NCBI GenBank assembly: GCA_951406725.2
Contig: OX597817.1
Coordinates: 78,554,001 to 78,618,000, forward strand
Reading direction: 5' to 3'
From: Octopus vulgaris
Lineage: Eukaryota
Length of the DNA: 64,000 nucleotides
How positions within the stretch are numbered: position 1 is the stretch's first letter; every line of letters starts with the position of its first letter. Positions 441 to 57,500 of this stretch are shown here, in pieces. The notes beneath the pieces were generated by a model. It was given only the letters and a program-made list of their open reading frames with translations, did not search any database and was not told the origin of the DNA. The translations under genes were made by a program, and so were the position numbers.

Positions 441-486
441 TAACACGTTTCAGCTGATACATCATCCAGCCTTCATCAGGTGTCTT
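441..486 (-). ncRNA. Minimal type I hammerhead ribozyme motif
   Basis: Minus strand reads gacac-CTGATGA-a-ggctgg-atgatgta-tcagct-GAAA-cgtgtTA: both conserved core blocks, a pairable stem II and a short near-palindromic stem III. Stem I pairing is weak. Confidence 0.65.
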
Positions 487-1082
487 GGGGAAATTTCGAA
501 CCTGGGTTCTCATTCCTAAGGTATTTTTCAATGTTTTTATTATTATTATTATTATTATTATTATTATTATTATTATTATTATTATTATTATTATTATTAT
601 TATCTGCCTGGAATCGAACTCAGAATCCTGGGGTTAGTAGCCCGCATTCTTAACCCCACAATTCCGAGTTCAATTCCAGGCAGAAACCTGAATAATAATA
701 ATAATAATAATAATAATAATAATAATAATAATAATAATAATAATAATAATAATGATAATAATAATAATAATAATCATCATCATCATCATCGTTTAGCGTC
801 CGCTTTCCATACTGGCATGGGCTGGACGGTGCAACTGGGGTCTGGGAAGCCAGAAGGCTGCACCAGGCCCAGTCTGATCTGGCAATTTTTCTATGGCTGG
901 ATGCCCTTCCTAACGCCAACCACTCCATGAGTGTAGTGGGTGCTTTTTACGTGCCACCGGCAAAGGTGCCAGACGAGGCTGGCAAATGGCCATGGTCGGA
1001 TGGTGCTTTTTAACATCGAAAAATACCTTGAGAATGAGAACCCAGGTTCGAAATTTTCCCAAGACACCTGATGAAGACTGGA
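466..1082. repeat. Large fold-back (inverted duplication) of a tRNA-head/(TAA)n/hammerhead element, with a nested RTE-like 3' fragment
   Basis: 466-535 is the reverse complement of 1012-1082. (TTA)n at 540-602 mirrors (AAT)n at 691-772. 603-636 pairs with 651-684. Confidence 0.9.
775..1010 (-). mobile_element. RTE-like retroposon 3' end with (GAT)n tail
   Basis: Reverse complement of the cacccactacactc..gttggcgttaggaagggcatccagc..ggacgttaaacgatgatgat block also seen at 22.0, 29.6 and 44.5 kb. Confidence 0.75.
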
Positions 1083-1303
1083 GGGCAATAGTGAAGCCAA
1101 GAATGTTAGAAACAGATAAGAATTATGTCAAGTGTTTAAAGGGATGCAGTTCTAGAAGTTATTAGAAAAATGAATGAATTACATGTTATGAAGTTATTTT
1201 AACTGAAGAACATTGGCATGTGAAAAATTCATGTTAAATGAATGGAAAAAATGATGAACAATGTATATATATGTGTGTGTGTGCATGTGCATATGTATAT
1301 ATA

Positions 1304-1381
1304 TAAATTTAAATAATAAGGGTAAAAAATGAAATATTAATTTGATTAATATCAATTTTTTACCCTTATCATTTAAATTTA
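1304..1381. repeat. AT-rich hairpin/palindrome
   Basis: taaatttaaataataagggtaaaaaatgaaatattaa pairs with ttaatatcaattttttacccttatcatttaaattta. Confidence 0.8.
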
Positions 1382-52400: not shown

Positions 52401-53953
52401 GACACAAACAGCGAGAAACTTAGAAAATGTAATAACAGTAGATAATTTAATCATTATGGGATGCCGGCTTTAACCCTGTGGGATCATGGGATGTCTAATT
52501 TAATTTATATGCCCTGTTGTCTGTTGAAACAAAAGAGGTACCAAAGATGTGGCAAATCTTATAAGATCAATCTTTACAGAAAATTTACAGAATATTTTTC
52601 TCTGCTTATCAATTATTATTTTTTTCTTGTATTTTTTTTATTATTTTTGTAGCTTTTTTCTTTCCTTTTCAGCTTGCCCTCTTTCTCCCTGTTTCTCTCT
52701 CTCTCTTTCTCTGTTTCTCTCTCTCTATATATATCTCTCTCTCTCTCTCTGTCTTTGTATCTATCTTGATATCTATCTATCTCTGTCTCTTGCTCTATCT
52801 TATACAGCTTCTTTTTGATATGATGGGGTTTTTTTTTGTATGGTTGTTGGCTTTTCTTTTGTATTTTAATTTATTTTATGTAATTCACTTGAGGTTTTGC
52901 TGTGTTCGAAAGTGACCCCCTCCCCTCTCTCTCTCTCTCTGAGAGTGAGGGGTGGGAGGGAGAGGAAGAGAGAGAAAGAGTGTGTGAGAGAGAGACAGAA
53001 TGAAAGAGAGAAAGAAACAGGAAAGTAGAAAGAATATGTTCTGTGTGAGATGTGCATGTATGTGTGTTTGTATATACATATGCATATATGTTTATATATG
53101 GGTGTGTATATGTGTGTGTGCGTGTTTGTGTGCATACAAATGTATGTGTATAGATTAAAGAGATTGCTATAGATATACATACTTAAACATATATGCAGAT
53201 GAAAACACACACACGCACACATATATATATAATATATGTATAATATATAATAATATATGATACATATACATATATATATATTATATATATTATACCATAT
53301 ATATATGTGTGTATATATATATATATAATATATGTATAATATATACTAATATATGATATATAGCAAATATGTATATATACATACATACATACATATATAT
53401 ATATATATATATTATATCATATATATATGTATACATACATATATATTATACCATATATATGTGTGTGTAGATATATATATATATATATATATATATATGT
53501 ATATATACACACATATATATATATACATGTACATACATTTATATAAGCATATGTGTGTGCATGCCTATATGCATGTGTGTGTGTGTGTGTGTGTGTGTGT
53601 GTAAATGTCTTCAGGCAAACTATCATACCATAAATATAGGCAAGAACATATTTAAATTTCAGCAACATGGTAGAGAGAGAGAGAGAGAGACTATGATTCT
53701 TATTCAATTTGTTTGAATTGTTACTCTCCTAACTTTGCATTTTATTTATTTTTTTTTTCTTCCGATGTTCTTTCAAGATTTTTTTTTCTACTTCAATAAA
53801 AAAAAAAACAACTTTATATAACTTTTTATACACTTTGAAACTTCATTGTCAATGAGACATCACTAAACGCAGACACATGCGAGAACTTATATAATATATG
53901 AATACAAATGCACTGTCACACACTCATTTATAAGTATGTATATTTATATGAGT

Positions 53954-54536
53954 GGAGGTGCATGGCCTAGTGGTTACAGCAGCGGACTCATGGTCGAGGG
54001 ATCATGGATTCGAATCTCAGACCGGGCAATGTGTGTGTTTACAAGTGAAAGACCTAAGTTCCACGTGGCTCAGGCAGAAGTTAATGGTGAACATCTGCTG
54101 TACTCTTTCGCCACAACCTTCTCTCACTCTTTCCTCATGCATCTAGCAGCTTACCTGTGATGAACCGGCGTACCATCCAGGTGGGGAACCTATGCCAAGG
54201 AAACCAGGAAACTGACCCTTATGAGCCAGGCATGGCTCGAGAAGTAACAAACATACTTATATGAGGTCACATGGCCTGATGGTAAGGGTGTTGCACTTGT
54301 GATCATGAGATCATGGTTTCAATTTCTTGGTTGTGCATTGCTTTCTTGAGCAGTCATTTTGATACCTTATATGTGGTACACCATACACCATACACCTGTT
54401 CAAGCAACATCGAATTGATGGAGAAAGTGAGCAAAAGTACAGCTTATACATTTGATTACTATAAGCAAATCATTTGTGCAGGTTGTTTGGCAAAAACTGA
54501 ACACTTATAAGTCGTCTTCAATGGGGAAGTCCATCA
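53954..54536 (+). mobile_element. Two adjacent tRNA-derived SINEs
   Basis: Heads ggaggtgcatggcctagtggtta..gattcgaatc and gaggtcacatggcctgatggta. The second matches 9175-9445 and 61701-62000. Confidence 0.75.
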
Positions 54537-57500
54537 TATTTATATATAGATGTGTGAATACAAAATACATACATATAATTCTCTCTCTCTCTCTCTCTCT
54601 CTCTCTCTCTCATATCAACTGATAAGCAAATCTGTGGTATTGAGCAAAATCTTGCTAAAGGCTGAAGCATTTGTCTGAAAAGGGGTTTCTTCTCTGAAGA
54701 CCTTGTTCTGATCAGCTCTCTTGAGAGTTCTTACCATTATGTATAAACCTAGGTAGTAGACATATGTAATATGACAATCTCCATCAAATTTAAAATAAAA
54801 CGAACAGCTTTAATCAATTTTTGGACTTAAGTGGACGCTCATCAGAGGTGTCTATATCACTTGACCAGTCCCAGAGAAGCAAACTATCAATCTGTTTTAT
54901 TCATTTATACATGCATATATATTAGTTATGAGGGTGTGTGCTTGCATGACAAATAACCAGTATTTAGAACTATGTATGATCCTGTTCCTGCTATTGTCTT
55001 CATATTCATATCATTCCATATGAATCTGGAGTTTAGGTATTTCACAAAGTACATGTAGAAAATAAAGCAAAAGATGAGAGTTTATTTATGATAGATTTAA
55101 CTAAACCATTAGTTGGCAGTAGTTGTCTCCTTTTCTGCCCACCTACAATTATTTAGAAGTGGTTGGTATTTGGTTATCAAAGCCATTTCTTTGTTGATGT
55201 GTTGGTATTATGTGTTGGTGTTATGTTTTGTAATTGTTAAATCATAAAATTGTTAAATCATAAAATATTATAATTTTGTGATAAGCAGCTGACTTCTGTT
55301 ATTGATTTGGAAAAGAGTGGGATGTTACTGCTCTGAGGAGTATTCAACAAATCATGGAACGGTCAGGTAAGAGACACATATTCTGCACATTAATATCATA
55401 GAAAATGTGTACTTACACTTTTAATTCACCCACAGGGAAGCTTCATAATATTTTTAAAAAAAAAGCAAATATCTTGTGTTTTCTAAGAAAAACTTACTTT
55501 ATTTACCTGAGTAACATTAAAACACTAAGAAAATTTGCAGACTGATCTGGTAGATATAGTAGCCAAATCTCCCTCACATCACTCATCCTAATCACATACA
55601 AAAAAAAGGACACTTTGCACAATGTAAACTTTGATATACAAATAGTTGGAATGGTCATGACTGGAATGTCTATCATCAAAGATCAACTCATTGAGTATTG
55701 AAGAGAGGCTAAACAGCCACGATCATTGCAACAAGAATTAGTTATTGTTTTGAATATAATAATCACAATTACATTAAAAAAAAAGCCTTTACCCTTTCAA
55801 ATGTGACAACGTGCCAAACACTGTTACGAAATCTATGAACATCATGATCAACATCATCATGATCAAAATCATGATGATGATGATGATGATGATCATCATC
55901 ATCATCATCATCATCACCATCATCATCATCATCATCATCATCATCACCACCACCATCACCACCGCCACCACCACCTCCTCCATCACCAACACTGCCATCA
56001 TCATCATAGGAGTTCTCATCACTATCATCATCATCAACAACAACAACAACAATAGCCAAAAATTCTTACCCAACCTCTTAACACCATTTATATAGATTCC
56101 ATATGAAAATGATGCTGAAGAAGATGGTAGAAGAAAGAAACAGAAGAGACTGGGTAGTCAAAAAGAGAGAGAGAGAATATATATATGTATGTGTGTGTGT
56201 AATATATATATATATATATATATATAATATTTATGTAATATATATATATACATACTTATATATATGTGTGTGTGAGTGTATGTATGTATATATATATACA
56301 TATATATATATACACACACACGCACATACAGAAAAAAGTAGAGAGAGAGAGAGCGAGAGAGAGAGCGAGTGAGGGTGGAGAAGAGATAAAGAGAATGAAC
56401 TCTGCCAAGAGAATAAGGAAATGAAAGCTGAATGAATCACTTAGTTCAAGTTTAGTCACCATAGAAAATAGACTTTCACTGAAGAATAATGACTATCAGC
56501 TGTTTCCAGACACAATTCCTTCTTGTCATTTTTCCTCCTTTTTAAATATTTTTCCTCTCTGCGATTCCTTTTCCTCTCCACCACCACCACCACCACCACC
56601 ACTACCACCACTAACAACACTTACCTTTTCTTAAATTTTATTTATTCAATTTCGCTTCTTATTCTTTTTTTCCGTTTTTGATTTTTTTTTTGTTTATGTT
56701 CATATTCTTGATCTCCTCAGTTGTTCAGTAACAATAACAACAGTAACAATATCAATATGAAACTGGTAAAAGAAAAAAAAATATAATATATATGGAGAGA
56801 GAGAGAGATAGAGAGAAGAAAGGAATGTAAAGAAAAAATTTACAAACAAAAAGAAAATGGAAGTATAGAGGGAGATGTTGAAATGAGTACAAGATGTGAA
56901 CCAAGTTGTAACTGATGACATGCTTTTAAACACATAAAACTTCAATTGGCCTTTGTTTTCAATAATAATAATAATAATAATAATAATAATAATAATAATA
57001 ATGATAATAATAATAATAATAATGATAATAATAATAATAATAATGAATAATAATAATAATAATAATAATAATAATAATAATAATGACAATATTAACAGCT
57101 ACACTAACAACAACAAAATAATAATTTATTTATTAACCACAAGGACCAGAAAGAAGAAAATATTAAGAAAACCAAAACAAAATAAAACATACATAAATCA
57201 TAATACAAATATATATATATATATATATATATATATATATATATATAGAGAGAGAGAGAGAGAGAGAGATAGATAGATAGATAAATATGCACATATACAT
57301 ATATATGCCTATACATATATGTATATAATGTGTATATATGCCATATATATATGTATATATGTGTGTGTGTGTGTATATATATATGTATATATATGTATAT
57401 ATATATATATACATATATATGTATGTATGTATATATATTTGCTGTATATCAATGTCAAACTTTGAGAAGTGTGATAAGTGCCATACAAGAAACTCTCATC

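Follow-up and report, generated by a model that had tools for sequence, protein, structure and literature searches.

What kind of element scatters hammerhead ribozyme motifs through a stretch of the octopus genome, and how does it spread? The question is raised by a 64-kb window of Octopus vulgaris DNA (positions 78554001-78618000 of contig 4, in a genome assembly of 2.8 Gb and 227 contigs) that is 33% GC and abundant in microsatellites. A sequence-only reading had marked ten hammerhead sites there and ascribed them to tiny non-coding elements mobilised by Penelope-like elements (PLEs) and leaving hairpins behind. With a probability of roughly 0.8, we favour an answer in two parts: among nine repeat families, here called A to I, some of the motifs are the ends of PLEs (F, G and H, with D homologous to such an end), and others belong to small non-coding repeats (A, B, C and I) that probably depended on the same Penelope enzymes for their copying. 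The hammerhead system is not wholly non-coding.

All ten positions sit in hammerhead cores of the form CUGANGA...GAAA...UH, and each site proved to be a dispersed repeat family with 100-2,571 first-look candidates. At least eight unrelated families had been claimed and nine were found, the sites at 44894 and 54806 being one family (I); exact-pattern counts genome-wide reach 12,891 for A, 18,314 for D and 5,642 for G, with controls at 0. In majority sequences of 30 copies per family, nine unrelated stem sets pair around the common core, and the very short palindromic stem III that had been described is present in all nine. The core is closed by stems I and II in A, B, C, D, H and I; E has a long, loosely paired stem II, and F and G carry core variants (an extra U; CCGAAGA). 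The window motifs thus belong to families whose majority sequence folds as a minimal type I hammerhead, for which self-cutting is predicted. Intact topology, which had been asserted throughout, holds for the five copies that pass the full descriptor (1580, 16127, 43016, 43196 and 44899), the other copies being damaged, and the site placed at 24597 on the minus strand is indeed a hammerhead but spans ~24677-24595 with a long stem II. With further family pieces at 1011-1086, 46057-46245 and 57917-57965, there are ~12 insertions per 64 kb. In window coordinates, the copies are:

342..660, minus strand: family A (the 441 site), with head at ~660-605, (AAT)n linker, core at 479-473, tail to ~342 and a 3-nt deletion at the cut site.
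1011..1086, plus strand: inverted arm fragment of family A, with a degenerate core at 1068.
1335..1790, plus strand: family B, a closed non-coding unit of ~535 nt, with a hammerhead at 1573-1646 that passes the descriptor and a (TA)n end.
6600..7012, minus strand: family C, a closed unit of ~560 nt, with a hammerhead at 6995-6934 in which G12 is changed.
15994..16204, minus strand: family D, a fixed ~220-nt element lying in (TA)n, with its core at 16127 and homology to a young PLE's 3' end.
24559..24731, minus strand: family E, an old family, with a hammerhead at 24677-24595 and a long stem II.
26286..26516: head-to-head pair of family F (the 26.4k site), core changed on both arms; 3' end of a PLE with reverse transcriptase (RT) and C-terminal GIY-YIG endonuclease.
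42505..42710, minus strand: family G stub and inverted arm with tail (the 42544 site), closing pair of stem II gone; pseudo-LTR (pseudo-long terminal repeat) of a 2.58-kb Hydra-type PLE.
42725..43328: head-to-head pair of family H, with cores at 43016 (minus) and 43196 (plus) and a tail of ~140 nt on the minus arm; pseudo-LTR of a 3.62-kb Hydra-like PLE.
44737..45009, plus strand: family I, a closed non-coding unit of ~305 nt, with a hammerhead at 44899 that passes the descriptor.
46040..46245: further inverted pair of family G, with the 5' half of the core lost.
54786..54897, minus strand: diverged copy of family I (the 54806 site), with its core at 54845 and G12 changed.
57917..57965, minus strand: 3' fragment of family G.

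An unrelated repeat at ~792-1012 lies between the two family A arms. Copies of family E are old, at 70-84% identity.

Which of these families have a coding parent? No RT or GIY-YIG open reading frame had been visible in the window, and tblastn confirms that no PLE frame lies there. When flanks were followed elsewhere in the genome, F, G and H were found joined to RT-endonuclease frames, D was connected by homology only, and for A, B, C, E and I no junction with such a frame was found. Families F, G and H are the 3' ends (pseudo-LTRs) of autonomous PLEs located elsewhere in the genome, which removes them from the proposed class of non-coding micro-elements. Walking upstream from family H crosses a 3' untranslated region (UTR) of ~600 nt and enters an RT-endonuclease frame that has many intact copies of 867-899 aa, and a head-to-tail array with a period of 3,624 carries one hammerhead per unit. 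The predicted protein contains DKT, CxxC and CxH and has RWL for RWK; CxCX5C was not seen, and a Pfam search of this parent gave no RT or GIY-YIG match. It is 39% identical over 451 aa to the parent of family G, which forms a tandem array with a period of 2,580 and encodes a 717-aa frame with RWK, DKT, CxCX5C, CxxC and CxH, with a weak Pfam match to GIY-YIG (E 0.014). Judged by its sequence, the G parent carries every Hydra-clade motif, is shorter than 3 kb and inserts in (TA)n. The window copy of G shares 88% identity with the pseudo-LTR and tail of the array, and its tail corresponds to the first part of the 5' UTR of the following unit. For family F, two of three extended long copies reach an RT and GIY-YIG frame ~1.4 kb upstream in the same orientation, the third being an inverted pair; from linker motifs only, we take this parent to be Neptune-like. 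The profile of the fixed, ~220-nt family D element matches a young PLE at its hammerhead 3' end, in 19 of 20 loci (E ~1e-7). Fixed 5' ends recur in D (28 of 48 at -70 to -83) and in H (~26 of 94 at -80 to -106, in a sample that, as for G, is biased) and may be transcription starts.

Three cases in which F or I appeared downstream of a Hydra-like endonuclease were rejected, as the sequence was not continuous, and a search of a second Hydra-type family linked it to the window families only through the seed locus and two incidental copies of D and H. Two PLE groups were observed in passing. In one, with intact 781-aa frames, the hammerhead downstream of the frame uses a U3-A8 core variant in many copies, so that searches for CUGANGA miss it; the other is very young, with 99-100% protein identity among its best 150 matches and open frames of up to ~1,200 aa.

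In families B, C and I, what lies upstream of the hammerhead repeats what lies downstream of it in the same family, at a fixed period: 511-538 nt in B (7 of 30 loci), 558-563 nt in C (5 of 30, four other loci giving 495 and 929-1117) and 302-306 nt in I (8 of 30, with one locus at 238). Same-strand hammerhead pairs at unit spacing occur in B and I, the longest stop-free frames in three tandems (two of B, one of I) measure 69-97 aa, and the units of all three families have no tblastn match to PLE proteins. All three are small closed units, of ~535, ~560 and ~305 nt, respectively, and are retrozyme-like with minimal hammerheads. Excluding F, G and H, the proposal of tiny non-coding elements is borne out for B, C, I and A, and probably for D, as small non-coding repeats with PLE-type ends.

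Family A has a different architecture, and its tRNA-derived head, missed in the sequence-only reading, is the least expected part of the system. A full copy consists of the tRNA-like head, an (AAT)n or (AAC)n linker, ~55 nt, the hammerhead, a further ~55 nt and an optional tail. Of 30 loci picked with the head as sole query, 26 run on into the family A body; among these 26 full copies, an A box is found in 18 and a B box in 25, and a T4 run is absent from 22, compared with its absence from 25% of random 250-nt pieces. When compared with 35 distinct tRNAs of few isotypes, the head aligns to the genome's tRNA-Arg genes with a z of 7.3-8.2 against shuffles, Cys being nearly as good. It was not called a tRNA by Rfam (at one locus, where no hammerhead was called either) or by ARAGORN at default settings, and the matches of a relaxed ARAGORN run were set aside as noise. 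Exact matches to the head number 6,559, about half of those to the core. The 3' ends fall downstream of the hammerhead into two classes ~30-40 nt apart, with no poly(A) or repeat tail; no tandems were seen among the loci examined. Outside CpG sites, the core varies only at position 7, the hammerhead's free position.

Family A is likely a short interspersed nuclear element (SINE) with a tRNA-type promoter, copied by Penelope enzymes. More specifically, we lean towards a polymerase III SINE of well over 13,000 copies, mobilised by a PLE and not by a long interspersed nuclear element (LINE), in which a tRNA head would have been joined to the hammerhead and RT-start region of a PLE. Alternatively, family A might be a LINE-mobilised SINE that captured a PLE end and carries the hammerhead as cargo. 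The tRNA head and (AAT)n linker would suit such an origin, as would the insertion of A outside (TA)n, the PLE partner that was not found and the Dong-R4-like pieces read by eye in the (AAT)n of some A copies. Set against it are the two 3'-end classes downstream of the hammerhead with neither poly(A) nor repeat tail, and the orientation of the inverted pairs of A, 25 of 25 of which are head-to-head, as in G and H; we consider a LINE origin unlikely.

Does family A need its ribozyme? The 3-nt deletion at the cut site, as in the window copy, has 1,731 exact matches against 9,534 for the intact sequence (~15%). It was present in 18 of 51 sampled copies, a sample enriched for it because the head query came from a deleted copy, and it occurs on both of two linked haplotypes, which suggests that the deletion recurs. 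Deleted copies also cluster regionally, 43 of the first 100 matches lying at 103-118 Mb of contig 1 (14 Mb, where the density of intact copies is not known); this clustering, together with the biased sample, suggests an inherited sub-lineage. We favour an inherited deletion, in which case family A would have spread without a working ribozyme, in agreement with the finding that hammerhead mutants still insert in vitro (PMC11167929). That the deletion is the footprint of an RT jumping across RNA cleaved in vivo appears doubtful to us. Families B, C, D, F and I have no hot spot of deletions at the cut site, and the picture in G was noisy. In three cDNA runs, A-like reads occur in both orientations, 69% run into unlike flanks and no pile-up of ends was seen, which fits read-through and has no bearing on cleavage. 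Two raw RNA runs, possibly from a different species, gave the H pseudo-LTR no real coverage.

Several observations weigh against a Penelope origin of the non-coding families. The PLE loci sampled yielded no autonomous parent of A, B, C, D, E or I, which leaves insertion marks as the only argument for their mobilisation by PLEs; for A, the PLE loci examined yielded no partner and LINE 3' ends were not surveyed. Family A does not sit in (TA)n, with (TA)5+ in 1 of 30 loci, and D, E and I have no excess of inverted arms. Furthermore, B, C and I might themselves derive from the pseudo-LTRs of unsampled PLEs. A rival account makes all nine families 5'-truncated stubs of autonomous PLEs, with no dedicated non-autonomous elements among them. 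Such an account is true for F, G and H and plausible for D and E, and dispersed single motifs are read likewise in PMC4209133. It is difficult to reconcile with the closure of B, C and I at a fixed period in independent loci, with the short frames (69-97 aa at most) of the three tandems examined in B and I, or with the same tRNA-like head preceding family A in 26 of 30 head-selected loci, and we regard it as quite improbable.

How, then, do the inverted arms arise? The association of the motifs with inverted duplications is correct for six families and not for D, E and I: per 30 loci, inverted repeats near the hammerhead and in far flanks number 18 and 7 for A, 17 and 8 for B, 20 and 5 for C, 17 and 8 for F, 28 and 12 for G, and 21 and 7 for H (17-28 against 5-12 overall), compared with 7 and 6 for D, 9 and 11 for E, and 5 and 7 for I. 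Adjacency to (TA)n likewise differs between the families and is nearly missing from A; (TA)5+ at the 3' end was found in 30 of 30 loci for H, 28 for D, 27 for G, 23 for B, 19 for I, 13 for C, and 8 each for E and F. The inverted pairs are head-to-head in 93 of 95 cases (overlapping loci may repeat a pair), H and G pairs have a tail on one arm only, and two 3'-end classes occur in H as they do in A. This geometry is the published PLE insertion pattern, inverted 5'-truncated copies and a one-sided tail being described for PLEs generally (PMC8557442).

The strongest form of the sequence-only reading holds that all families are dedicated non-coding fold-back micro-elements spreading as hairpins. 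Besides the enrichment of arms, the divergence of H arms speaks for it (2.2% within loci vs 5.8% between). For A the corresponding values are 9.8% and 11.0%, and divergence is similar within and between loci for B, C, F and G. Within a single A insertion, the arms differ in the cut-site deletion in five loci and at core position 7 in two, and since they carry different variant markers, obligatory fold-back copying is not supported. Given also the coding parents of F, G and H, the published geometry of the arms and the three families without enrichment, we consider universal fold-back spread highly improbable. Chance matches in AT-rich, microsatellite-rich DNA, which do inflate the bare CTGANGA word through (ATG)n repeats, have a negligible probability, because full-descriptor matches are in excess in the window and the far flanks and every site is a repeat family. 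With a strict type I descriptor, the window has 3 matches against a shuffle mean of 0.05-0.10 (maximum 1; three block sizes, 60 shuffles per size), and 4 against 0.05 (maximum 1; 40 shuffles) when a longer stem II is allowed. In 528 kb of far flanks, from loci not chosen for PLE frames, the latter descriptor has 15 matches, one being the window's own B copy, against 0, 0, 1, 1 and 0 in five shuffles. The bare core occurs 152,517 and 287,520 times genome-wide compared with 97,851 and 50,807 for a reversed control, a roughly 3-fold excess that overstates true hammerheads owing to the (ATG)n repeats. An Rfam scan of the window returned no hammerhead among the 150 of 471 matches listed, all microsatellite.

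We envision that, in the combined system of PLE ends and passengers, a PLE protein would nick AT-rich DNA on both strands and reverse transcription would initiate within the RNA, at fixed positions lying ~100-280 nt downstream of the hammerhead; the ribozyme would then be part of even the shortest product. With both flanks acting as primers, the outcome would be two arms that meet at their 5' ends, one of them with a tail, and most copies would be dead on arrival. In vitro, a PLE was found to cleave and extend on both strands, with internal RT starts and the tail lying between two RT start sites (PMC11167929), and the two 3'-end classes in H and A match such a tail; both-strand priming is extended here to the octopus families by analogy. 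Cleavage would require a dimer, which tandem units (B, I, and tandem G and H) could form in cis but the monomeric A only in trans. Inverted arms, being on opposite strands, offer no cis partner.

The general finding of multi-family minimal hammerheads in PLEs is not new: thousands of dispersed motifs, in many families per metazoan genome and with opposite-strand pairs 100-700 bp apart, were reported in 2014 (PMC4209133). The octopus families resemble those described there in their many consensus families, dispersed singles, opposite-strand pairs and palindromic stem III, in the U3-A8 core variant (here in another PLE family) and, by analogy, in the low, dimer-dependent activity to be expected. 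Compared with what that report sets out, parents are here traced for three families, and one family is tRNA-headed. The density of intact motifs, ~27 per Mb in a non-random sample of flanks, would extrapolate to ~75,000 per genome, compared with 2,000-9,000 per genome obtained there with a different descriptor. Measured against the Hydra clade as outlined in PMC8557442, the G parent agrees in length (below 3 kb), in RWK, DKT, CxCX5C, CxxC and CxH, in its hammerhead and in (TA)n targeting, whereas the H parent differs in its 3.6 kb, its RWL and the missing CxCX5C, the placement being by motifs and not by tree; tails are ~90-140 nt in the octopus families and 30-40 nt in that account. Among cephalopods, 235 Rfam hammerheads are given for the giant squid (PMC6962438), and the octopus repeat annotation (PMC13282606) records abundant PLEs, with no mention of hammerheads found in its search listing or supplement.

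A PLE origin has been proposed for animal non-LTR retrozymes (PMC7229834; bioRxiv 10.64898/2026.07.22.740005), with which B, C and I share a small closed unit, a single type I hammerhead and the occurrence of monomers and short tandems. Their hammerheads are minimal and not canonical with loop 1-loop 2 contacts, as in the 2020 definition (PMC7229834), although minimal models are also admitted in the 2026 preprint (bioRxiv 10.64898/2026.07.22.740005). In addition, copies of B, C and I are mostly monomers or partial dimers with PLE-type ends.

Hammerhead elements of schistosomes go by the name Sm-alpha. As these SINE-like elements are described in PMC6765202, family A shares with them a polymerase III promoter and a hammerhead in a short retroposon. 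The schistosome elements form tandem repeats in which the promoter is left at the 3' end of cleaved monomers (PMC6765202), whereas A is dispersed, has its head 5' of a minimal hammerhead, lacks tandems in the examined loci and bears PLE insertion marks. With the tRNA-derived SINEs of octopus (Ohshima and Okada 1994, cited in PMC4824008 and PMC4758252), it has in common the tRNA-derived head, tRNA-Arg giving the best raw alignment score; OR1 and OR2, cited as CORE SINEs in the same two papers, are set apart from A by citation only and not by sequence. A literature search, whose reach did not extend to subscription papers, Repbase, Dfam, SINEBase or the repeat library of PMC13282606, found no tRNA-headed, PLE-mobilised SINE. 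Family A may already be catalogued under some name, with its hammerhead not noted.

Other features of the window belong to none of these families. At 40755-41741 (plus strand), next to (TAA)n, a non-LTR retrotransposon that we take to be Dong-R4 is represented by its 3' end, with a restriction-like endonuclease and a zinc-binding motif that matches Pfam zf-RVT; related pieces lie at 38095-38432 and 49233-49505. The frame at 9802-10215 (minus strand) is presumably a Tc1/mariner transposase fragment. A possible degenerate hammerhead at 14250-14320 (minus strand, core at 14312) has no family profile match, and inverted repeats at 22575-22872, 6369-6519 and 3276-3383 match none of the nine families; CTGATGA is present at 22601 and 22846, where the second core half was not seen. 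Outside the window, at least six further hammerhead families were observed in far flanks and the first 1.7 Mb of contig 1.

What would these families mean for Penelope biology? Young intact PLEs, their stubs and their non-coding passengers in one genome make a tractable test system for the origin of head-to-head insertions with a one-sided tail and for the need for PLE hammerheads, a question on which the ~1,700 exact matches of the cut-site-deleted A variant bear. If our interpretation is true, a single genome displays three PLE lifestyles, namely autonomous elements with their stubs, retrozyme-like circles and a tRNA-headed SINE, and the partnership of SINE and PLE would widen the SINE-LINE rule to include a third retroelement class.

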